Source: Rhodospirillaceae bacterium
GTDB taxonomy: Bacteria > Pseudomonadota > Alphaproteobacteria > Rhodospirillales > Rhodospirillaceae
Length of the DNA stretch: 64,000 nt
Direction of reading: 5' to 3'
Assembly: GCA_004297485.1 (NCBI GenBank)
Contig: SCTM01000153.1
Coordinates: forward strand, 2,172 to 66,171
The notes under the pieces: model-generated
Database searches by the model: none
Told to the model about the DNA's origin: nothing
What the model saw: the letters and a program-made list of their open reading frames with translations, nothing else
Translations under genes and position numbers: made by a program
Shown: positions 18,271 through 35,028 of the stretch, piece after piece
Position numbering within the stretch: the first letter of the stretch is position 1
Layout of the letters: every line of letters begins with the position of its first letter

Positions 18271-19041
18271 CTAAGCCCGGCCTCCGTTAGGACCGAACGG
18301 GCCTGCTCGAAATCGCGGTGAGAAGGTCGCTTCAAAAACGGGAGCGAGCATGTCGTATAATTCGTCCAGACGCCGCACCAGTTTACGCATCATGGCGTTG
18401 AACTCCCGCTGGAGCTCAGTGAGCCCTTCGCGAAAATAGCGATTAACCGGGAGCGGCTGGCCATTCTCGCCCATTATCCCGTTGTGCCGATGCTCAAAGA
18501 GAGACCCCATCTTGAACATTTGATCATCACTGCTGAAGCCACGTTCAGCGCCGTGATGAAAGCGACCATTGCGTTCCTGTCGTAACGTTCCCTGATCGGC
18601 TATCATTTCATAGAGAAGATCAAGAAACGGCTTTGGCACGCCAGCTTTCTTGAGCCTTGCAGCAGTACAGTCGCGCGCGTCCAGCTCGCACTCGAATACC
18701 TCATTGATGAGAAGCATCACGCAATCGACCACTGAAATGAAGCGCATGAGAAAGGCATCTGCCGAGACCGTTAGCCATTCGTAGCGCGAGAGCGGGAAAT
18801 TTTTGAAATTGTCGGGAAAATTCTCGGACCAAAGCATGTCTCCAACCATGTTAAGAGACTCGACACGTCGCGTCAGCGTGGACAGGAAGTGGTTGACGCG
18901 AAATGCGTATTTGCAGTCAGGATGTTTGGCCAGTTCATCGTACGTGTCGAAGTGAAGTCCGACGATGGAAAGATCATAAATCCGACCCACGAATTCATGG
19001 TTGTCGGAGGGCAAGATGAATCTTTTTAGCGGCCTGGCCAT
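18271..19041 (-). CDS. Hypothetical protein with a HEPN-like R-x4-H motif
   Basis: All-helical 256-aa ORF. RNGRFH lies at 18556-18573, an Rx4H motif with Asn after the Arg, as in many HEPN RNase families. The region has lower GC and I see no clear ribosome-binding site. Confidence 0.45.
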   Translation of the reverse strand: MARPLKRFILPSDNHEFVGRIYDLSIVGLHFDTYDELAKHPDCKYAFRVNHFLSTLTRRVESLNMVGDMLWSENFPDNFKNFPLSRYEWLTVSADAFLMRFISVVDCVMLLINEVFECELDARDCTAARLKKAGVPKPFLDLLYEMIADQGTLRQERNGRFHHGAERGFSSDDQMFKMGSLFEHRHNGIMGENGQPLPVNRYFREGLTELQREFNAMMRKLVRRLDELYDMLAPVFEATFSPRFRAGPFGPNGGRA

Positions 19042-19146
19042 AATCGCTATTACTTATTGTGGGAAGGCGCTCAAACTATTTGGTCGGCAGCTCTTATTCA
19101 GGCAGAGCCTTTTCTACCTAAGAACCTCCACGGTATCCCACAACCT

Positions 19147-19205
19147 CACTCCCGCTCAATCATTCCCGGCGGCTTTGACGTCACAGGCAACGCGGTTCAC
19201 GTCCA
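19147..19205 (-). pseudogene. Degenerate copy of the guaA 3' end (remnant 2)
   Basis: TCACTCCCGCTCAATCATTCCCGGCGGCTTTGACGTCACAGGCAACGCGGTT aligns with the true guaA end TCACTCCCATTCTATGGTCCCCGGTGGCTTTGACGTCACATCGTAGGTGACGCGGTT. It would encode TSKPPGMIERE* against [11 protein letters not shown] in guaA. Confidence 0.7.
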
Positions 19206-19228
19206 CACTTCGTCGGCAATGTCATTGG

Positions 19229-20560
19229 TCAGGCCCACGGGATATTTCTGTTCACTAGTGAAACACCCCTTTTCACCATTACTCTTTTGTCCTCGTACCA
19301 AACTACGCTAATAGGTCCATCCTGAGAAACCACAACGACATGCGCGTCGGCAGCCTGACTTACCAGCTTGATTGCCGATCGGTGCCGCATGCCAAACTGC
19401 TCAACATCGCAAGTCTTATGTTTCTGCGCGAATTCGTCTATGACTTCCGACACGGCAACACCCGAGGCGAATTCGGCACACACTTCTGCGCCAAACCCCA
19501 TTAGCCGCAAATCCGACGACAACACTATCGCGCCGTCGCATCCCGCCAACTGGGCCACAAACCTGGTCGTTTCAGTCAAACGATCCGACGCGGCGGAAAG
19601 AACTAGCTCGGACTTAAAATACTTGGCCGAACTCTTCTTATTTGCACGCTCAAACTGCTCCCAAAAGTCGGCGGTAACATTCCGAGCATTGATAAAATCA
19701 ACAAAGGCTGTTTGGAGAAAATCGGAGCCGGTCGGATATTTTATCCGAAGGTGTTTTACCATTTCTGTCGCGTCAACTGGGGCGACAACCAGCATTCCTC
19801 CGTGACCAGAAAGGGCGATGGAATTTGCGATGGACGAAAATACATTCCAGAGCGCTGTAAAACAAAAGCCGTGGTAATCCTTAGGCTCCTCGAATTTTGG
19901 TGGGGCGAAGCGCTTGCCCATGACTCTGAGGCCTTGGTCGACCGGCGTATGTAGAAATGCATTGATTTCAACGCCGCCGCGCGTCACCTCACCATCGATC
20001 AAACTTCCAACGTGGAACTGTCCTTGGTAGACTTTCATCCTCCCGGGCCTATCAACTTGGATAAGCAAGTTATTCGGCACCGCATAATTATACGAGAGAC
20101 CCAAGCGCGCCCTGTGCCAAGACGTACCCAGGTCTACCAGTCCAGCCACACATATTTCATTGTCGTCCCACGTTATCCAAATTGCAGATTTACGCAGGTC
20201 AGAGGCTGGCGCAAGGCGTTGCAGCTCACTTACAGTCAATGTGCGTGGTTGAACGAATGGATGAAAATTGATGTCAGGTTTCGCCGTCTGTGCGAGACCT
20301 TCTTTCGTAACGACTACATTGAATTGTGAGTAGCGTCCTTCTTCTGGAGATGCAGCAGCAAGATAACTCGCCTCCAGAATAGTTCGGAGTTTTTCCTTGG
20401 GCGGGCAAGCAGGAGCAATGTGATCCCCGGCGATCATTATGTCCCAGCGGCTGGCCACCATTTCAGCAAGATCCCGCGGAAAGGCGGCGCGATTCACTTT
20501 CCTCTTGCGCGGGAATGCTACTGCATCAATTCCAACAAGACGGCCGCTTCCCCTGTCCAT
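19229..20560 (-). CDS. DisA_N/DAC-like (diadenylate-cyclase fold) protein with a large uncharacterised N-terminal region
   Basis: The C-terminal roughly 190 aa carry the DAC blocks in order: GHGGMLVV, CDGAIVL (DGA at 19529-19537), GMRHRSAI (RHR at 19379-19387) and VVVVSQDGPISV. No HhH or transmembrane part is present. The ATG at 20560 overlaps the pseudo-stop of guaA remnant 1 (TGATG). Confidence 0.6.
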   Translation of the reverse strand: MDRGSGRLVGIDAVAFPRKRKVNRAAFPRDLAEMVASRWDIMIAGDHIAPACPPKEKLRTILEASYLAAASPEEGRYSQFNVVVTKEGLAQTAKPDINFHPFVQPRTLTVSELQRLAPASDLRKSAIWITWDDNEICVAGLVDLGTSWHRARLGLSYNYAVPNNLLIQVDRPGRMKVYQGQFHVGSLIDGEVTRGGVEINAFLHTPVDQGLRVMGKRFAPPKFEEPKDYHGFCFTALWNVFSSIANSIALSGHGGMLVVAPVDATEMVKHLRIKYPTGSDFLQTAFVDFINARNVTADFWEQFERANKKSSAKYFKSELVLSAASDRLTETTRFVAQLAGCDGAIVLSSDLRLMGFGAEVCAEFASGVAVSEVIDEFAQKHKTCDVEQFGMRHRSAIKLVSQAADAHVVVVSQDGPISVVWYEDKRVMVKRGVSLVNRNIPWA

Positions 20561-20638
20561 CACTCCCACTCAATCGTCCCTGGCGGCTTACTGGTCACAT
20601 CATACGCCACGCGGTTGACACCCTTCACCTCGTTGACG
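20560..20638 (-). pseudogene. Degenerate copy of the guaA 3' end (remnant 1)
   Basis: About 80% identical to 20852-20930. It translates to [24 protein letters not shown] against [24 protein letters not shown] in guaA. Most differences are synonymous. Confidence 0.85.
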
Positions 20639-20652
20639 TCATCGTAGGATTA

Positions 20653-20844
20653 TCACTTCTTACCGGCCCATCCCCGCTCCGCGACCCGGCTCATCTGCTC
20701 GGCGGACAGGGCACGCCGACCCGGCTTCTTCAAGCAACCGAAAACATCGGAAATCTTTCCCGTGGGCACGGCCTTTGCGGTTTCGGACGCGAAGACGCGT
20801 GCTTTCCGTACGCTTTTCAGGATGCGCTTACCTTCCTTTGTCAC
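20653..20844 (-). CDS. Small ORF resembling the C-terminal tail of an AbrB/VapB-type antitoxin, possibly a remnant
   Basis: DVFGCLKKPGRRALSAEQMSRVAERGWA resembles the tails of AbrB-type antitoxins, but the SpoVT/AbrB DNA-binding part is absent. The GTG start lies 7 nt after the guaA stop. Confidence 0.3.
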   Translation of the reverse strand: MTKEGKRILKSVRKARVFASETAKAVPTGKISDVFGCLKKPGRRALSAEQMSRVAERGWAGKK

Positions 20845-20851
20845 GTCACTC

Positions 20852-22405
20852 TCACTCCCATTCTATGGTCCCCGGTGGCTTTGACGTCACATCGTAGGTG
20901 ACGCGGTTGACGCCCTTCACCTCATTGACGATGCGGTTGGCGATCTGGCCCAACAGCGCCATGTCGAAGTGGAAAAAGTCGGCGGTCATGCCGTCGGTGG
21001 ATGTGACGGCGCGCAGCGCCAGCGCGTAGTCATAGGAACGCGCATCGCCCATGACGCCCACGGTGCGTACGGGCAGCAGCACGGCGAACGCCTGCCAGAT
21101 GGAATCGTAGAGGCCAGCGTTCCTGATTTCCTCAAGATAAATCGCATCGGCCTTGCGCAGGATGTCGAGCTTTTCCCGCGTGATCTCCTGCCCCGGAATG
21201 CGGATGGCGAGGCCGGGACCGGGGAACGGATGGCGGCCCACCATTTCGTCGGGCAGGCCCAGTTCGCGGCCGAGCACGCGCACCTCGTCCTTGAACAATT
21301 CGCGCAAGGGTTCCACCAGCTTCATCTTCATGCGCGCGGGCAGGCCGCCGACGTTGTGGTGGGACTTGATGGTGACGCTGGGCCCGCCGTGGAAGGACAC
21401 GGACTCGATCACGTCGGGATAGAGCGTGCCCTGCGCCAGGAAATCGGCGCCGCCGGCCTTGTGCGCCTCTTCGTCGAACACGTCGATGAAGGTGGCACCG
21501 ATGATCTTGCGCTTTTTCTCCGGGTCGATCTCGCCCTTGAGCTTGCCCAGGAACAAATCGGACGCGTCGCGCGCGATCAGGCGCACATTGAAGCGGTCGC
21601 GGAACACGCGCACCACTTGCTCCGTCTCACCGGCGCGCATGAGGCCGTGATCCACCAGCACGCACAGCAACTGATCGCCGATGGCCTCATGCAACAGCGC
21701 CGCCACCACGGATGAGTCGACGCCGCCCGACAGGCCGCAGATGACGCGGCCTTTGCCGACTTGTGCCTTGACGGCGGCGATGGCCTGCTGCTTGAACGCG
21801 GCCATGGTCCAGTCGCCCTTGGCGCCGCAAATGTCGCGCACGAACTTCCGGTAGAGTTCGGTTCCATGGGGCGTGTGCACCACTTCGGGATGGAACTGGA
21901 CGGCATAAAAGTGCCGCGCCTCGTCGGCGACGGCGGCGAACGGCGCGCCGTCGGAGGTCGCCACGACCTTGAAACCGGGGGGCAACGACACGACGCGGTC
22001 GCCGTGGCTCATCCACACCTGCTCGCGACCGCCCACGGTCCAATGGCCGGAGAACAGGTTCGATGCGCCGGTGATGTCGACGAAGGCGCGGCCGAATTCG
22101 CGGTGGTCGGAGCTTTCCACGCGCCCACCGAGTTGGGCCACCATGGTCTGCTGGCCGTAGCAGATGCCCAGCACCGGCAGGCCCATGGTGAACAGTTCAT
22201 CCGGCGCCTTGGGCGTGCCGATGTCGAGCACCGACGCAGGGCCGCCGGACAGGATCACGCCACGGGGCGCGAATGCCTTGATGGTGGCCGCCGTGACTTT
22301 GTTGAAGGGTTGGATTTCGCAATAGACGCCGATCTCGCGCACGCGCCGCGCGATCAGCTGTGTGACTTGGGAGCCGAAATCGATAATGAGAATGCGGTCG
22401 GTCAT
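20852..22405 (-). CDS. guaA: GMP synthase (glutamine-hydrolysing)
   Basis: Full-length match to the GuaA pattern: GATase domain ([27 protein letters not shown]), PP-loop SGGVDSS and the canonical C-terminus [10 protein letters not shown]. Confidence 0.97.
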
Positions 22406-28909: not shown

Positions 28910-28983
28910 TGGGGGATCGTCCAACGGTAGGACAACGGACTCTGACTCCGTGAATCTAGGTTCGAATCCTAGTCCCCCAGCCA
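28910..28983 (+). tRNA. tRNA-Gln (anticodon CUG)
   Basis: A full cloverleaf was folded by hand: acceptor TGGGGGA/TCCCCCA, D stem GTCC/GGAC, anticodon stem ACGGA/TCCGT with loop CTCTGAC, T arm CTAGG-TTCGAAT-CCTAG, discriminator G and encoded CCA. 74 nt. Confidence 0.93.
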
Positions 28984-29127
28984 CCTTCTCGAAATCCTGA
29001 GAATTCAACAGGTCCCGCGTACCGAAGCGGGGCTGTGACGTAGCGCGGCGTAGCAGGCGGCCGTCTAAGCGGACTATTCTCAAAGCTACCATGGGGTGTC
29101 GTTTCCAGCAGCTCATTCGGGTCAGAC

Positions 29128-29898
29128 ATGAACGAGGCCGACTCCAGTGTCGTGACATGCGTGTGGGTCGAGCAAAGCTACCAAGCACACCATACGCGCC
29201 AGCACGTAGGGCCACACATCGACGGCTGTCCCACATGCGCTGAGATAACGAGGCCGTTTTTTGAAGGGCTACGGTCTCTGTTCTCTACAGCCGCCGCATC
29301 ATTTCAATTGGAGGCTTCAAGATTCCGGGAAGGCGTCCTTTTGCTCTCAAGCGGGGCGTCACAGCCAGACACAACTGACCCCTCCACTGCCTTCCTGTTG
29401 GAACTGTCTCAACGTCTGAATCACGACGCTGCTCGCTACTATGCCTCGGCTCCTCATAATAGCCTGTGTGCGCTTATGTGGCTGCAACAGGCGTTCTTTG
29501 TATGTCGGGCGTTTGAATCGGAACAACTCATCGAGGGCGCGGAGCCATTTGAAGCGAAGCGGCCGCAAGTAGGGCCGATGCCGGTCCCTGACTCTGGTGG
29601 CCGAAGATGGGATGATGTGTCATCACCATCAACGATGATTGGGGAAAATCTCCAACACGGGACTTTCACTTTTAATTTTGAATTCCACGAACGCTTTCTT
29701 CGCGAGGTCGAGAAGGGAAAGTTCGTTCACGCACTCGTTTTAACCTGTGATCCGGCAAAGCACGGCGTAATGAGTCCCCTGCTCAACCTCGCGATGACTG
29801 CTCATGTCGAACAAATATACGCATTGGGGCTCGATGCTGCATCTTTGGCGCTTCGGGCGTTTTGCACCAAACACAAATTCCAACCCAGCGCCATATGA
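29128..29898 (+). CDS. Hypothetical protein, no recognisable family
   Basis: 256-aa ORF in lower-GC DNA directly after tRNA-Gln. Its stop overlaps the next gene's start (ATGA at 29895-29898). The N-terminus carries His/Cys residues (H..H.....H...CPTC). The start is unverified. Confidence 0.5.
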   Translation: MNEADSSVVTCVWVEQSYQAHHTRQHVGPHIDGCPTCAEITRPFFEGLRSLFSTAAASFQLEASRFREGVLLLSSGASQPDTTDPSTAFLLELSQRLNHDAARYYASAPHNSLCALMWLQQAFFVCRAFESEQLIEGAEPFEAKRPQVGPMPVPDSGGRRWDDVSSPSTMIGENLQHGTFTFNFEFHERFLREVEKGKFVHALVLTCDPAKHGVMSPLLNLAMTAHVEQIYALGLDAASLALRAFCTKHKFQPSAI

Positions 29899-32800
29899 CA
29901 CCAGAGCAAATAGAGACGAAGAAGCTTCTTACCCGAACCTTGGGGCAAGAATTCGCCACTCGATATGAGGATCTGTGCACGCTCAGCACGCCGCTTGCTT
30001 CGCTTCAGATCGATCTACCGCTTGCGACTCACGCGATGCGTGAAATGGAGTCAATGCTGCGCGGTATATTGCCGAAATCGGGACTTCCCGAACTGACGGC
30101 AGAAACGAAAGGTAAGCTGGAGCAGGCGAAGCGCCAATTGCTCGACTTGAAATTTGATAGTCAGCGAGTTCACGACGCGGTTAAGAGACTCTACGAGAAT
30201 ACACAACGCGCACAAATAAATGGGGTGTTGCGGGCACTCGATATCGACCAAGAAAGTGACACGGCTAAAGCGTGGCTTGCATTTGGGAAGCAGCAGGCCG
30301 GCCTTGCGCATAAGCGATCCTGGCGAAAACGGCTGAAGCTTGATAGCGATTTTTCGAGCGAAACTATCTTTCCCTTCTTGTCAGTCATAAGAGGGGTCGC
30401 CTTGGCATTCGAGGCCAAATACCCCTCATTTATCGCGCGGGTTGATGAATTGGCTTTAGGCCAGGATAAAGACGCAGCCATAGCTGAATTTGCCGAGAAA
30501 ATTCCGCATTCACCTGCCGTTGAATCGCGATTTTTCTCACGGATTGAGCCAAGTGGATGGTTAGGGCTCCTCAACAATCACGATTTTTATGCAGATCGGG
30601 GCGTAGAGCATCCTCAGTTTGATAAGTCTTGGAACCAGGGGACCTATCTAGCGCGAGTGGCAGCAGCGCCCGACGCCAGCGAACAATCCCTGGTATTGGC
30701 AATAGTGAAGGGCCTCGCCGCATCGGTTGATGCGGTGATCCGAGAAAACTGTCTTAAGGCGTTAATGGCCCTACCTGCTGCGGAAAGCGCTTCAGCAACC
30801 TTCATAGTCGAGGCATGGCTTGATAAAAGCCTGGATCGTGATGTTACGCGGCTAACGCTGCAGTTTGCACAGAAGCTCGCGAAGGGCCGCCAGTTCGAGC
30901 CTGCCATCAGACTGTGTCGAAAGCTTCTGCGCGTTTGGCGTCAGGGCGAGGGCTCTGATCTTGAATCTCATTTCGCGCCGCGTGGAATATATGAGTGGGC
31001 CGTACAAAAGATCGCTCCGGGTTTAATTGAGGGCGCACCATTACTGGCATTCGAGCTATTTTGTTCACTGCTGAGTGAGGCGGGGCAGGCTTCAAGGTTA
31101 TTCTCCGCGGACAGCAAACACGACCACAGCAACATATGGCGCAAAACAATCGCCGATAACGCGGACAACTCTCGGAGTGAGATCGGGGTCCTAATAACCG
31201 CAACACGCGATTCAGCGATGCAGCTGACGAAGGTTGCTGAAGCGTCTGAAGTTGTAAAATTGCTCAGCGCCCAGCCATACCCAATGTTTCGCCGAATTGC
31301 GCTTCATGTGCTCGCGAACGCCGGTGGGGCGAGCCTTGAACTAGCTTCATCTGCTTTGAGTGATATGGAGCTAATCGCAGATGCTACTTATGACCACGAG
31401 TACACAGCACTTGCGCGCGCCGCCTTCTCGCAACTATCTCCAGATGTACAGAATGCGATCATTAAGCAAATCGAGACTTCGTTGGAGATCATTACTCCCC
31501 GCTGGCGGGCTTGGTTTGAAAGTGAAAACAGTCGCCCTCCTACGGCCGAGGAGGAACGTAAATCGATGCTTGTCGCGCGGCGTGACAAGTATTGGGACTG
31601 GCGAGAGGCCCTTCCTACGGAGAAGAAGGCAGAGATCAAGGCTATCGCTGTAGAGTTTGGAGACCCGGAGCCGTGGCCGCCAGCCTTCATGCGGTTGGGA
31701 TCCGAAAGCCCTGTCACCCCAGAAGAATTGTCCGAGTGGCCTTCAGACAAGTTGTCGGCATATTTGGTCGCTTGGAGCCCAGACCGCAAAGAAAGGGAAA
31801 TTGCTATAAGTGGCCTTGAGCAAGCTGTTGAGAAAGCAGCTCGAGATAATCCAGTGCTCTTTGCACTCGCCGCTCAGGGGCTTGGTAATGCAGTACCGGA
31901 AATACATCGTTGCATCTTCGCCGGCTTATTGGCCGCCGCAAAGCATAATGAAAAATTCCCATGGAATGGTGTCTTGTCCCTGATTGAGAAAATAACTGAC
32001 TTAGTGTTGAACCTCCCAAACTCACAAATTAATCGACAGAATTCCGCCCTTGCGGCGGAACTGCTGAAGCTTGGCTTCATGACCCTGCCATGCCAAATGC
32101 CGTCAGAATTTGTGGATCGCGCGTGGGCTGCAACCGTCGCGCTCACGGGCGCTGTTCCCGCAGACGACACCGCCAATGATGAGGAAGGCGCGCGACACCG
32201 CCATTTCCGCGCCGCGCATACGACAGCGGGTACAGCAATAGAGGCCATGATTTGGTATGCGGTCCGGCGACTTCGTTACCCTGCTCCCGGAGACGCTCCG
32301 ATAGCTCTCTTCCAGGACCTTCCCGTCGGTCCTATCGTGGATGCACTCCTTGATGACAGGTCTTCGAGGGCAACACAGTGGAGATTGGTCGTCGGGGGCC
32401 AACTATGGCGATTAATTGAACTCGACGATCATTGGGTAACTACGCGATTAGGAAAACTCTTTCCGCCGGAGAACATCGCGCTTGGTGAGGCTATTTGGAG
32501 AGGGCATCTGGAAGGAGGCCGCCTGACCTCTAAGGCAGCCGCGTTGCTAGTGGATCAGTATAAAAGCGCCTCCACCAGCATACGTAGCGACGTTGCGCTA
32601 GAAGATCCTGATGGAGGTCATGATCGAATTTCGCGCAGATTGATCAATGATATTGCCCACGCATATGTGCTGGGTTTCTACAATGTGAACAGCGACAGTC
32701 CTGTAGATGCCATTCTTGCTCACGGCGATGATCCCGTTAATGCGGACATCATTTCGATCGTGGGGCATGCCGCCCAGGATATATTTAACCAGCCGGCTGA

Positions 32801-33278
32801 TCAGCAGACTTCAATCTCGATCGAGCGCGCCAGGAATTATTGGGTCCTTCGGAAAGAGACGTGGACTGGTACGCCACAGACTTATCAGCTGGAAGCCTCG
32901 AAGGTCGCTGAGTGGGTCCAGCACTCAGCCTTTGATTCAACATGGAGGCTTCAGCAGTTGTCATGTGCTCTTGAGAAGGGGGTATTGCTAGATTCGCCAT
33001 GGGATATCTTTCCTTGGCTCGCCGAAATGGCTGACGAGGACCCAGTGCAGGTTGTTGGAATCCTGTATGCAATGGTTACCCATCCCGCTGCCAATCAGTA
33101 TACAGTTAACGGGCCTGACGAAGACGTCGAAACCATTCTTAGCGCGGCTCTTGCATGCGGAGATGCCGCTGGAGTTCGCAAAGCAGAATCGCTGATAGGT
33201 GCACTGACGACGCGGGGAAATCTCTCTTTTCTGAGTATGATAAGCGGCGACCAGCAGACCTCTAGAGCACAGACCTAG
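29895..33278 (+). CDS. Large (1127 aa) all-helical, repeat-like hypothetical protein
   Basis: Uninterrupted 3.4-kb ORF in lower-GC DNA. The ATG at 29895 overlaps the upstream stop. I recognise no catalytic motif, and the Leu/Ala-rich composition suggests HEAT/ARM-like helical repeats. Confidence 0.65.
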   Translation: MTPEQIETKKLLTRTLGQEFATRYEDLCTLSTPLASLQIDLPLATHAMREMESMLRGILPKSGLPELTAETKGKLEQAKRQLLDLKFDSQRVHDAVKRLYENTQRAQINGVLRALDIDQESDTAKAWLAFGKQQAGLAHKRSWRKRLKLDSDFSSETIFPFLSVIRGVALAFEAKYPSFIARVDELALGQDKDAAIAEFAEKIPHSPAVESRFFSRIEPSGWLGLLNNHDFYADRGVEHPQFDKSWNQGTYLARVAAAPDASEQSLVLAIVKGLAASVDAVIRENCLKALMALPAAESASATFIVEAWLDKSLDRDVTRLTLQFAQKLAKGRQFEPAIRLCRKLLRVWRQGEGSDLESHFAPRGIYEWAVQKIAPGLIEGAPLLAFELFCSLLSEAGQASRLFSADSKHDHSNIWRKTIADNADNSRSEIGVLITATRDSAMQLTKVAEASEVVKLLSAQPYPMFRRIALHVLANAGGASLELASSALSDMELIADATYDHEYTALARAAFSQLSPDVQNAIIKQIETSLEIITPRWRAWFESENSRPPTAEEERKSMLVARRDKYWDWREALPTEKKAEIKAIAVEFGDPEPWPPAFMRLGSESPVTPEELSEWPSDKLSAYLVAWSPDRKEREIAISGLEQAVEKAARDNPVLFALAAQGLGNAVPEIHRCIFAGLLAAAKHNEKFPWNGVLSLIEKITDLVLNLPNSQINRQNSALAAELLKLGFMTLPCQMPSEFVDRAWAATVALTGAVPADDTANDEEGARHRHFRAAHTTAGTAIEAMIWYAVRRLRYPAPGDAPIALFQDLPVGPIVDALLDDRSSRATQWRLVVGGQLWRLIELDDHWVTTRLGKLFPPENIALGEAIWRGHLEGGRLTSKAAALLVDQYKSASTSIRSDVALEDPDGGHDRISRRLINDIAHAYVLGFYNVNSDSPVDAILAHGDDPVNADIISIVGHAAQDIFNQPADQQTSISIERARNYWVLRKETWTGTPQTYQLEASKVAEWVQHSAFDSTWRLQQLSCALEKGVLLDSPWDIFPWLAEMADEDPVQVVGILYAMVTHPAANQYTVNGPDEDVETILSAALACGDAAGVRKAESLIGALTTRGNLSFLSMISGDQQTSRAQT

Positions 33279-34008
33279 TCACAGCGACTCCTGCACCACA
33301 CAGAGCCTTGATCTCTTCAAGATATTTGGGGTCAGAAAGCGGGTGCACAACCACCTGGTCAATAAGCCCTGCCAAATCGAGTGGGGGCGCTAAGAATCGA
33401 AGCGACGGGTTGGCAATCTGTTCAAAGTGATTCTCGCGTGCCTCTTTTACCCAAGGAGCATCCTCTGGCCCCGCAACATCAGCCATCGCACGCAGCTCCT
33501 GCTCCCATTCAAAGTCGGGGCGGTGCTTGTGCATGACTCGTTCATAGAGATTCATGCCCTCAATGCGTTGAGAGCCATAATCGATATAATTAACCAGGCC
33601 CAGATTTACGAACGATGGAAGGGATGCTCTGAGACGAGCGTAGGACGACCGAATGGCGATGGAACGCGGTGAAGCCGTATATTCCTTCCACATGCGTTCA
33701 TTTTCATCATTGCGTATTGTCCAACAATTCACGAACCAATGTTCGCGCCATGTCTGAACGAAACGAGCCATGAAATCCCTGTTATGGGTATAGACTGATT
33801 GTTCCGTCGCTGAAGTGGCATCGCGTATTTTAAGATCCCACCATGCGGTCTCGCCGACCGGCACAGAACCCTCAAGTTTGTCCGTGAGGTCTGGAAGGCG
33901 CGTCATCCATAGACGCTTCTCCGTCAGCAGCCACTCCAGCTTGAAATGGTCCATGTACCGCCAAATGACAGTGTCTGGATGGAGTGCCTTAAACGCTGGA
34001 TGATCCAT
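33262..34008 (-). CDS. DUF2971-like protein
   Basis: VIWRYMDHFKLEWLLTEKRLWMTRLPDLTDKLEGS and VNCWTIRNDENERMWKEYTASPRSIAIRSSY match the two hallmark DUF2971 blocks as I remember them. Convergent with the 1127-aa gene, overlapping it by 17 nt. Confidence 0.55.
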   Translation of the reverse strand: MDHPAFKALHPDTVIWRYMDHFKLEWLLTEKRLWMTRLPDLTDKLEGSVPVGETAWWDLKIRDATSATEQSVYTHNRDFMARFVQTWREHWFVNCWTIRNDENERMWKEYTASPRSIAIRSSYARLRASLPSFVNLGLVNYIDYGSQRIEGMNLYERVMHKHRPDFEWEQELRAMADVAGPEDAPWVKEARENHFEQIANPSLRFLAPPLDLAGLIDQVVVHPLSDPKYLEEIKALCGAGVAVTRSVL

Positions 34009-34030
34009 GATTGAGTGATGCGGTCTTAGT

Positions 34031-34273
34031 TCAGAGTATGAGAGCGCCGCTATTACTTAACTCAAATCGTAGCAGCCTGATCTCAAGCAAGCGCAACGCC
34101 TCTTGGAATTCAGAATGGACAATTTGGTCTTTAGGCAAGACAACGAATCTCTCACATGGCTCATGTCTGCCGTGAGTTAGAACTTGGCCGATAGCTTTAT
34201 AAATATCGTCGCGAGAACAGCTCGTTTTCACCTCATATACCTCGACAAGCACCTTGCGCTGAGTAACGCCCAT
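34031..34273 (-). pseudogene. Truncated PD-(D/E)xK-nuclease-like ORF
   Basis: GID-x10-EVYEVK looks like the D...ExK core. The reading frame stays open for 37 more codons upstream, up to the in-frame vapC stop codon, with no usual start codon. This suggests an N-terminally truncated gene. Confidence 0.35.
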
Positions 34274-34384
34274 ATCAATTCCAATATCTTTTACGATCTT
34301 GGCTGAAGCAGGAAGCCCTTGCCCGCGCCTCCACGTGTTCAGTGCATCAACAACCTCTCCATGGCGCGATACATAGCACCACCG

Positions 34385-34771
34385 TTATGAATACCTTACG
34401 TCCGTCTTTGAAAAATCGGCGCCCTTGAAAAGAAGAGTCTCATCGCGACTGATCGCAAGCGCGTAAGAAAAGCAATCGCCATAGTTGATGCCCGCGGCGT
34501 GGCGGCCTTTGCCAAATTGGCGCCAAGCACGACGCGCCAAATCCGCCTGTTCGGCATCGACCGGCACGATCTCCACGTCTGCGCGTTGGAGCCAGAGATC
34601 GAATTCCCTGCCGCCCGCATCTCCTAGACGCGCCTCGACGACAATCGCTGTTTCCAAGAATGTCCCAGCTGAAATCAGGCGAACCGGATCTTCTACGATC
34701 CGGCGTTCGAAATCCGCAGCTTCAGGTTCATTGAAGAGGATCGCGCTGATGACGGACGTATCAATGACCAT
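34385..34771 (-). CDS. vapC: Type II toxin VapC (PIN domain ribonuclease)
   Basis: [12 protein letters not shown]... with the conserved acidic residues (D4, E39-like, D..D, NYGDCFSYA). 128 aa. Overlaps the vapB stop by 1 nt (TAATG). Confidence 0.9.
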   Translation of the reverse strand: MVIDTSVISAILFNEPEAADFERRIVEDPVRLISAGTFLETAIVVEARLGDAGGREFDLWLQRADVEIVPVDAEQADLARRAWRQFGKGRHAAGINYGDCFSYALAISRDETLLFKGADFSKTDVRYS

Positions 34772-35028
34772 TAGCGCGGCAATCCGTGTTCGTCGTAACC
34801 AAGCACACCCTCTGGAGGCCGATCATCTAAAATGGGGAGTTTGGCGCAGCGCTCTCTAATCGCGGCAAGGTCCTCCAGAAGCAGGCGCTGCTTCCGAGGC
34901 GCAATTCCCACGCGCTGCAAACGCTCCTCCAATGCCTTTTTTGTCGCGTCGGTGATCGTTTCTCCCGTGCGGCGAGCGAGGTCGCGCGCCAGACGTTCAG
35001 TTTCCATATCCTTGATGCTGAGAGCCAC
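34771..35028 (-). CDS. vapB: Type II antitoxin, VapB family
   Basis: [33 protein letters not shown] is typical of the FitA/Rv0623-like VapB antitoxins paired with PIN toxins. Confidence 0.85.

Follow-up and report, generated by a model that had tools for sequence, protein, structure and literature searches.

A DACNV-DAC protein, a predicted input-gated diadenylate cyclase, encoded as a single-gene cassette at the 3' end of guaA in a Rhodospirillaceae genome

Two immune systems built on diadenylate cyclases (DACs), the DAC-based form of the anti-phage signalling by cyclic oligonucleotides known as CBASS (DS-2/CBASS-DAC) and PanDA/Panoptoo, were shown experimentally in 2025-2026. Defence by DS-2/CBASS-DAC requires the DAC catalytic residues of DGA and RHR (PMC13092281, PMC13069673), and half of the DS-2C homologs adjoin CBASS. 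In PanDA/Panoptoo a minimal DAC represses a 2TM-beta effector. A CBASS-like system resting on a DAC is an experimentally established concept only for these other DAC families (CdaG, PanS). We analysed a 64,000-nucleotide stretch of a Rhodospirillaceae metagenome-assembled genome (MAG; contig SCTM01000153.1, proteins TAL01546-TAL01551), referred to here as the window, which carries at 19229-20560 of its minus strand a gene for a protein with a DACNV domain at the N-terminus and a DAC domain at the C-terminus. By its sequence this protein belongs over its full length to the DACNV-DAC family, a named but uncharacterised family of which it is a new member, and not to a new kind of system. The family presents itself as a third candidate for a role in immunity, after CdaG and the minimal DACs: its members are mostly from Alphaproteobacteria, are distributed sporadically, often lie in islands, and in one genome lie within CBASS. 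The window locus itself adds little to that candidacy, having no linked effector and neighbours that are unrelated co-insertions.

Compared with the rest of the DACNV-DAC family (PF21751 plus PF02457), the window protein is structurally the same, and only its setting between remnants of the guaA 3' end is notable. Like DS-2C/CdaG, it is a DAC that is putatively soluble and has an extensive N-terminal "sensor" region, which in CdaG is reported to include the non-catalytic, DAC-related domain DACNH. The CdaG-type proteins carry DACNG and DACNH at the N-terminus and are ~550-575 aa long, whereas the window protein carries DACNV in 422-443 aa; neither DACNG nor DACNH gave a Pfam match in it at E<=1. 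DACNV-DAC genes stand beside CBASS at only 1-2 of ~33 loci, and the window is not one of these. A DACNV homolog at locus L014 has the same patatin and CD-NTase setting as DS-2C, but the DAC there is of the DACNV and not of the CdaG type. PanS is alike in being a DAC-fold cyclase in Pseudomonadota immunity, with low GC content and an island setting, but it is a minimal DAC of ~150 aa that has no sensor domain, is constitutively active and always occurs with a 2TM-beta effector. None of these latter traits applies to the window protein, and the ORFs adjacent to its gene matched neither 2TM-beta nor any other effector family. With CdaA, DisA, CdaS and CdaM the window protein shares the fold of the catalytic domain as well as DGA and RHR; unlike them, it is without transmembrane helices, a helix-hairpin-helix (HhH) domain and cdaR/glmM neighbours, and has an extra hairpin between beta2 and the DGA strand. 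The operon of CD-NTase and effector typical of CBASS in general was not found in the window and is present around one homolog, that at L014.

Profile searches carry the family assignment. Pfam DACNV (PF21751, "probable sensor domain") matched residues 50-142 with an expect value of 3e-16 (59.8 bits against a cutoff of 27), where residues, like D342 and R392 below, are numbered from the ATG at 20560. Pfam DAC (DisA_N, PF02457) matched residues 383-420 at 29.0 bits, above its cutoff of 27, in a partial match that spans profile positions 77-114 of 119. Because DACNV matched so strongly and DAC exceeded its cutoff, the DAC blocks in the protein are not a chance resemblance. The homolog search covered 5.8 billion proteins and the profile search 1.84 billion cluster representatives. 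They returned 215 homologs that are 41-56% identical to the query across at least 94% of its length, all of the same two-domain architecture, and a family of ~311 clusters (50% identity) at E<=1e-30, nearly all of them 420-450 aa long. Many homologs, from Sphingomonas, Allosphingosinicella, Mesorhizobium, Bradyrhizobium, Ruegeria and others, bear the NCBI name "putative sensor domain DACNV-containing protein". An earlier note on this DNA, made from the sequence alone, had described the protein as an orphan with an unknown N-terminal domain of roughly 250 aa. With 215 full-length relatives and names in both Pfam and NCBI it is no orphan, and the N-terminal region, which is ~220 aa long, is the one matched by Pfam DACNV. 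According to two 2026 papers, DACNV-DAC is among the DAC architecture families classified by Galperin (2023, J Bacteriol 205:e00023-23); the term DACNV was not found in the full text of the literature that was searched. No phage relatives were found by tblastn or by a BFVD fold search, the only plasmid copy found is in Hymenobacter, and PADLOC and PHROGs gave no match for the protein.

Several observations separate the protein from the housekeeping cyclases, in agreement with the earlier note. The NCBIfam models for CdaA, DisA, CdaS and CdaM scored only 13-21 bits against cutoffs of 189-225 (for example, 13.3 bits against 188.8 for the CdaA model TIGR00159, and 21.3 bits against 201 for the DisA model NF010009). 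Pfam found no HhH domain in the protein. The highest Kyte-Doolittle value over a 19-residue span is 1.37, which indicates no transmembrane helix, and the protein is predicted from its sequence to be soluble. The neighbours of the gene are guaA, a 63-aa ORF and a HEPN-like gene, with no cdaR or glmM among them.

The catalytic motifs are intact and in the expected order. Four DAC blocks are encoded on the minus strand: GHGGMLVV at 19784-19807, CDGAIVL at 19520-19540, GMRHRSAI at 19370-19393 and VVVVSQDGPISV at 19304-19339. The earlier note had named these four blocks and given positions for both catalytic motifs, which are confirmed; its estimate of about 80 residues between the first two blocks compares with a count of 81. 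The DGA motif (D342, G343, A344; 19529..19537, minus strand) has an Asp and a Gly that are invariant in 30 homologs, with Ala, Gly or Ser in third position. The RHR motif (R392, H393, R394; 19379..19387, minus strand) is invariant in the same homologs and aligns to the RHR of solved DACs. The 30-sequence alignment is also invariant at HGG (253-255), CDG (341-343), GFG.E (355-359), FG.RHR.A.K (389-398) and SQDGP (412-416), and every family-invariant residue is present in the window protein.

The gene is an intact minus-strand ORF (19229..20569), with a product of 446 aa if translation begins at a GTG and of 443 aa if it begins at the ATG at 20560; the feature as given here (19229..20560, minus strand, stop codon at 19229-19231) rests on the ORF list, the Pfam DACNV and DAC matches and an analysis of start codons. 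In the homologs the first residue falls where codon 22 of the ATG-initiated ORF lies. A GTG is found there (20497), with AAGAGG just upstream, and residues 1-22 have pLDDT values below 50 in the AlphaFold2 model. The true start is therefore probably GTG 20497, which gives a protein of 422 aa, matching the lengths found in the family. The adjoining guaA remnant ends in a TGA stop codon that overlaps this ATG at 20560. Coupling of translation to guaA by way of the TGATG overlap was considered, but the overlap is probably a coincidence, as the homologs start at the position of codon 22, where the GTG preceded by AAGAGG is found.

The predicted structure places the C-terminal half among the DACs. 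The AlphaFold2 model has an average pLDDT of 87.3 and a pTM of 0.82, and the first eight PDB entries ranked by Foldseek are all CdaA, DisA or DacM, with a probability of 1.0 and target TM-scores of 0.54-0.60. The C-terminal DAC (DisA_N-type) catalytic domain, defined by Pfam DAC, Foldseek and the invariant residues, extends over residues ~223-443 (19232..19894, minus strand). It has the CdaA/DisA/DacM fold with a helical insertion, and the earlier description of a DAC-fold protein with both catalytic motifs in place is upheld. The insertion is a helical hairpin between block 1 and the DGA block, at residues ~281-341 (19538..19720, minus strand). DSSP assigned two helices to it in the model (H281-306 and H312-341), and these account for the long gap between the first two blocks.

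The N-terminal domain also resembles a DAC in its predicted fold. This putative regulatory domain, delimited from Pfam, the model and Foldseek at residues ~25-222 (19895..20488, minus strand), is predicted to have a degenerate DAC-like alpha/beta fold. Modelled alone it has a pLDDT of 88.7, and its top three Foldseek matches in the PDB are DACs: DacM (7dfx_B, E 5e-4, probability 1.0), CdaM and DisA. Its secondary-structure elements follow one another in the same order as those in the C-terminal DAC domain, and it has neither DGA nor RHR. The model suggests that DACNV is a degenerate copy of the DAC domain. A 2026 preprint, citing Galperin, likewise reports the DACNH domain of CdaG as DAC-related. 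If it is true that the N-terminal domain is a dead DAC copy, the family would offer a simple model for the gating of DAC dimerisation.

The DAC gene is foreign, low-GC cargo of an island that lies at the guaA 3' end and has no integrase. The resident guaA (GMP synthase, TAL01551.1; ORF 20852..22405, minus strand) has an insertion hotspot at its 3' end, and three copies of that end are present, at 20852-20930, 20560-20638 and 19145-19204, with very small blocks between them. The first remnant (20560..20638, minus strand) is 79 nt long, is 81% identical to the guaA end at 20852-20930 and has kept its reading frame. The second (19145..19204, minus strand) is decayed and has an internal stop; it aligns over 65 nt at 75% identity, and its 41-nt core makes up repeat family D3. 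Since guaA 3' remnants lie on both sides of it, the DAC gene is the sole gene of a block of ~1.4 kb. A 63-aa ORF with no family match (20653..20844, minus strand), between guaA and the first remnant, forms a separate and newer block. The island as a whole spans 4.2 kb (16665-20851), the GC content falls from 0.65 to 0.52, and no integrase ORF was found between 16665 and 20851. The GC content of the DAC gene is 0.517, and 0.53 at third codon positions (GC3), against 0.646 and 0.86 for guaA; the flanking core genes ABC-F, guaA, rsmB and guaB range over 0.64-0.67 in GC and 0.77-0.86 in GC3. Repeats and composition thus agree with the earlier proposal of a horizontally acquired, single-gene, low-GC cassette bounded by guaA 3' remnants.

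The guaA 3' end is a documented site of island integration (GIsul2, PMC9376610; ICERspD18B, PMC7775301). The window island is like GIsul2, ICERspD18B and Tn5801-like elements in that foreign DNA follows directly after guaA and is accompanied by direct repeats of the guaA 3' end. It is unlike them in that it has no integrase, and in that its three repeats mark off tiny blocks, among them one with a single gene.

The best explanation of these observations, to which we assign a probability of roughly 0.55, is that the gene encodes a soluble DACNV-DAC enzyme of two domains, a diadenylate cyclase that is gated by an input and acts in trans, its sensor role and its product being deduced rather than observed. 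The DACNV domain, with its degenerate DAC fold, would act as a regulatory or sensor module. It would probably control the head-to-head pairing of two catalytic DAC domains; such pairing is required in the established enzymology of CdaA and DisA. In the presence of its cue the enzyme would make cyclic di-AMP (c-di-AMP) or a close relative. As the DAC gene is accompanied by no gene for a receptor or an effector, the product would act in trans on unlinked targets. With guaA, the HEPN-like gene and everything between them on one strand, the gene would probably be expressed by transcription that reads through from guaA. Synthesis of c-di-AMP in vitro is known for other DACs with an N-terminal extension (DS-2C/CdaG). 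The gene is a reasonable candidate for anti-phage or stress signalling.

A number of results weigh against this interpretation. Cyclase activity in DACNV proteins is predicted from sequence and models, and a c-di-AMP riboswitch was not found in the window. The TM-scores behind the DAC-like fold of the N-terminal domain are modest (0.36-0.44). A comparison of the N-terminal and C-terminal halves with hhalign was not significant (E 0.52), nor was a comparison of the N-terminal half with the distant DAC-like proteins at loci L029 and L030 (E 0.019, probability 2.5%). Both half-comparisons align in one register (GTSWHRAR with GxRH, VDRPGR with VSQDGP), which is suggestive only, and since the profile comparisons are not significant we keep the derivation of DACNV from a DAC at the level of fold. 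Sequence alignment of the catalytic half to solved DACs is limited to the stretch from RHR to beta5/6, with the full family profile and with a profile from which the hairpin was removed alike; as only this stretch aligns, the equivalence of the DGA motif rests on fold and on motif order. An invariant Cys precedes DGA, and at the acidic pair that follows beta5 the protein has QD, as against EE or EET in CdaA. Given this Cys and the QD pair, metal binding and product could differ from those of the known enzymes.

The genomic surroundings of the family are for the most part unremarkable. The loci surveyed comprise 30 from a species-level genome collection, seven found by exact-protein look-up and one plasmid. 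No conserved partner gene was found among them: all-against-all clustering of 425 neighbour ORFs revealed lineage-restricted synteny only, and no neighbour family was common beyond related genomes. A Pfam and PADLOC summary of 121 neighbours consists mainly of housekeeping families, and the DAC gene often lies directly behind a housekeeping gene on the same strand. For example, thiC precedes it in four Sphingomonadales (L001, L003, L033 and L035), where it starts 0-4 nt from the thiC stop. Downstream of it in these loci are toxin-antitoxin genes (YoeB; MazE with Fic) at L033 and L035 and a caspase-like gene at L001, and the 3' flank of thiC seems to be a variable hotspot in Sphingomonadales. 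An Aestuariivirga MAG has the same guaB-rsmB-guaA-DAC order as the window, with guaA intact. The preceding gene is queF at L008 and an ABC-3 permease gene in Syntrophobacteraceae.

Two neighbour families are the most frequent, glutathione peroxidase and an HtrA-like protease (Trypsin_2/PDZ), and each accounts for three of the 121 neighbours. Glutathione peroxidase is found near DACNV-DAC in four loci from three phyla, the Hymenobacter plasmid included. It lies within two genes of the DAC gene at L019:8894-9397, L028:9490-10035, L022:2020-3165 and L042:3699-4301, which represent two Acidobacteriota loci, Cyanobacteria and the Hymenobacter plasmid; on the plasmid a patatin-Omp85 lipase gene stands between glutathione peroxidase and DACNV-DAC. 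For the members outside Alphaproteobacteria, this proximity may point to a connection with oxidative or lipid stress.

Defence-like or mobile contexts are a minority of the loci. In Herpetosiphon giganteus DSM 589 (L014:680-3930) a CBASS patatin effector (PADLOC E 1e-161) lies 39 nt upstream of the DACNV-DAC gene, which is convergent with a CD-NTase (E 3e-31); the same locus holds an integrase fragment at 111-494. At L028 a CD-NTase lies three genes away from DACNV-DAC. In Lentilitoribacter (L007:5905-7923) and Ruegeria (L034:4929-6950), which belong to two orders, a GHKL ATPase of 672-673 aa is encoded immediately upstream, the two proteins being 68% identical. They have an N-terminal GHKL domain (HATPase_c) and, as read by eye, a C-terminal PD-(D/E)xK-like motif (PDVLIFDY...LLIEFKRP), and PADLOC gave no match for them; the GHKL ATPase and DACNV-DAC may form a two-gene module in one subclade. 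An integrase gene is adjacent at L040, and L026 has an IS21 IstB. Patatin, CD-NTase, the GHKL partner and glutathione peroxidase are all absent from the 64-kb window.

These contexts bear on the possibility, favoured in the earlier note, that the gene is a dedicated anti-phage module, in which DACNV would sense infection and the DAC domain would make a nucleotide alarm. The alarm would either switch on an unlinked CBASS-type effector or, in a host normally without c-di-AMP, be toxic by itself and lead to abortive infection. We regard this as a tentative alternative, clearly less probable than a general input-gated cyclase. Consistent with it are the sporadic distribution and deep divergence of the family (the best non-self match of the window protein is 55-56% identical) and the low GC content and hotspot island, shared in the window with a PD-Lambda-5_A homolog and a HEPN-like gene. 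The patatin, DACNV-DAC and CD-NTase genes at L014 reproduce the three-part composition of the validated DS-2/CBASS-DAC. The nearby CD-NTase at L028, the GHKL ATPase upstream in two orders, the adjacent integrase at L040, the toxin-antitoxin genes at L033 and L035 and the caspase-like gene at L001 point in the same direction. However, no effector is linked to the gene in the window or at most loci, the protein is without a PADLOC or PHROGs match, and many loci are plainly housekeeping (thiC, guaA, queF, mutL, uvrB, rpoD). The commonest neighbours, glutathione peroxidase and the HtrA-like protease, are not defence genes, and a 2026 survey of ~1200 DACs saw enrichment of defence neighbours only for the minimal-DAC and CdaG clades.

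Among the side results, duplications of the 3' ends of host genes, which recur at three loci, were the least expected. At three independent loci, direct, non-identical copies of part of a neighbouring gene (75-90% identical in nucleotide sequence where measured) flank DACNV-DAC. These are the guaA 3' end in the window (19145-20638), the queF 3' end at L008 (313-414 and 1713-1814) and a radC-like fragment in Sorangium (L010:7607-7858 and 9314-9584). L008 is a Rhodospirillaceae MAG, and its queF copy encodes 39 aa, including the stop, at 82% identity. Flanking duplications were absent at eight further loci. The copies fit a Campbell-type or double-crossover exchange of cassettes through duplicated ends, without an integrase. 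Alphaproteobacteria are not known to have canonical c-di-AMP signalling. A more specific proposal would combine these points: a one-gene immune module in which the tandem of pseudo-DAC and DAC detects infection and floods a c-di-AMP-free host with a dinucleotide alarm, either toxic or feeding unlinked CBASS-type effectors, and which spreads as a minimal cassette without an integrase, using duplicated 3' ends of housekeeping genes (guaA, queF at L008, the radC-like fragment at L010) as homology arms. In this complete form the proposal is speculative and we think it improbable.

The structural results bear on another alternative, that the protein is a diverged member of the DAC fold that does not make c-di-AMP and is instead a nucleotide-binding pseudo-enzyme or the source of another product, for instance a dinucleotide that is linear and of the pApA type or one that is cyclic and asymmetric, made by a pseudo-DAC and a DAC paired within one molecule. 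The Pfam DAC match is partial and just 2 bits over its cutoff, family-specific changes stand beside the motifs (CDG, SQDGP), and a helical insertion of 60 residues is present. Tandem DAC-like folds in one chain could break the symmetry of the active site, and PanS, which is a DAC, makes 3'3'-cUA through a symmetry break. Yet the Asp and Gly of DGA and the whole of RHR are invariant in 30 diverse members, which is hard to explain without catalysis, and DS-2C, which is similarly divergent, still makes c-di-AMP. We therefore consider this alternative quite unlikely. That the gene is inert, decaying cargo of a degraded guaA-targeting island, with no present function in the host, is the least probable account: the missing integrase, the decayed guaA remnants and the presence of the exact protein on only one other short contig would fit it, but the ORF is intact, has a plausible ribosome-binding site and start, and has kept all family-invariant residues.

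The HEPN-like gene (18271..19041, minus strand) encodes 256 aa; it matched HEPN_Cthe2314 at E 2.3e-5 and 24.9 bits, under the cutoff of 27.1, and an RNGRFH (Rx4H) motif can be read from its translation. Beyond it lies a gene on the plus strand (16862..18205) that had been described as ParB-like. It did not match Pfam ParB, and is a PD-Lambda-5_A homolog (PADLOC E 6.4e-70; phrog_9592 E 2e-47). The adjacency reported in the earlier note thus holds, the HEPN assignment is sub-threshold with the Rx4H motif present, and the ParB identity gives way to PD-Lambda-5_A. The two genes form a separate, older block beyond the second guaA remnant. As conserved partners of the DAC gene both were rejected, as tblastn of the two against 30 homolog loci found nothing. 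They are neighbours through co-insertion at the hotspot and not partners, and no functional link between them and the DAC gene was found. Within this block (16862-19041) the PD-Lambda-5_A homolog converges on the HEPN-like gene, with no methyltransferase or PD-Lambda-5_B nearby; the two genes could make up a variant defence pair that has no connection with the DAC.

Three further features of the window lie apart from the guaA locus. A second low-GC island (~0.53) at 28910-35000 begins right after tRNA-Gln(CTG) (28910-28983) and contains ORFs of 256 aa and 248 aa without a Pfam match, an ORF of 1138 aa (29862-33278) whose match to PADLOC Dsr1 (E 3e-21) is confined to the C-terminal part of Dsr1, and a PIN-domain toxin gene (34385-34771, minus strand). 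Just downstream of the ABC-F gene, at 14718-15061, a 106-nt unit occurs in three tandem copies (overlapping, 132 nt each, with 95% identity). A cobalamin riboswitch (Rfam RF00174, 83.7 bits) is located at 2685-2909 on the minus strand.

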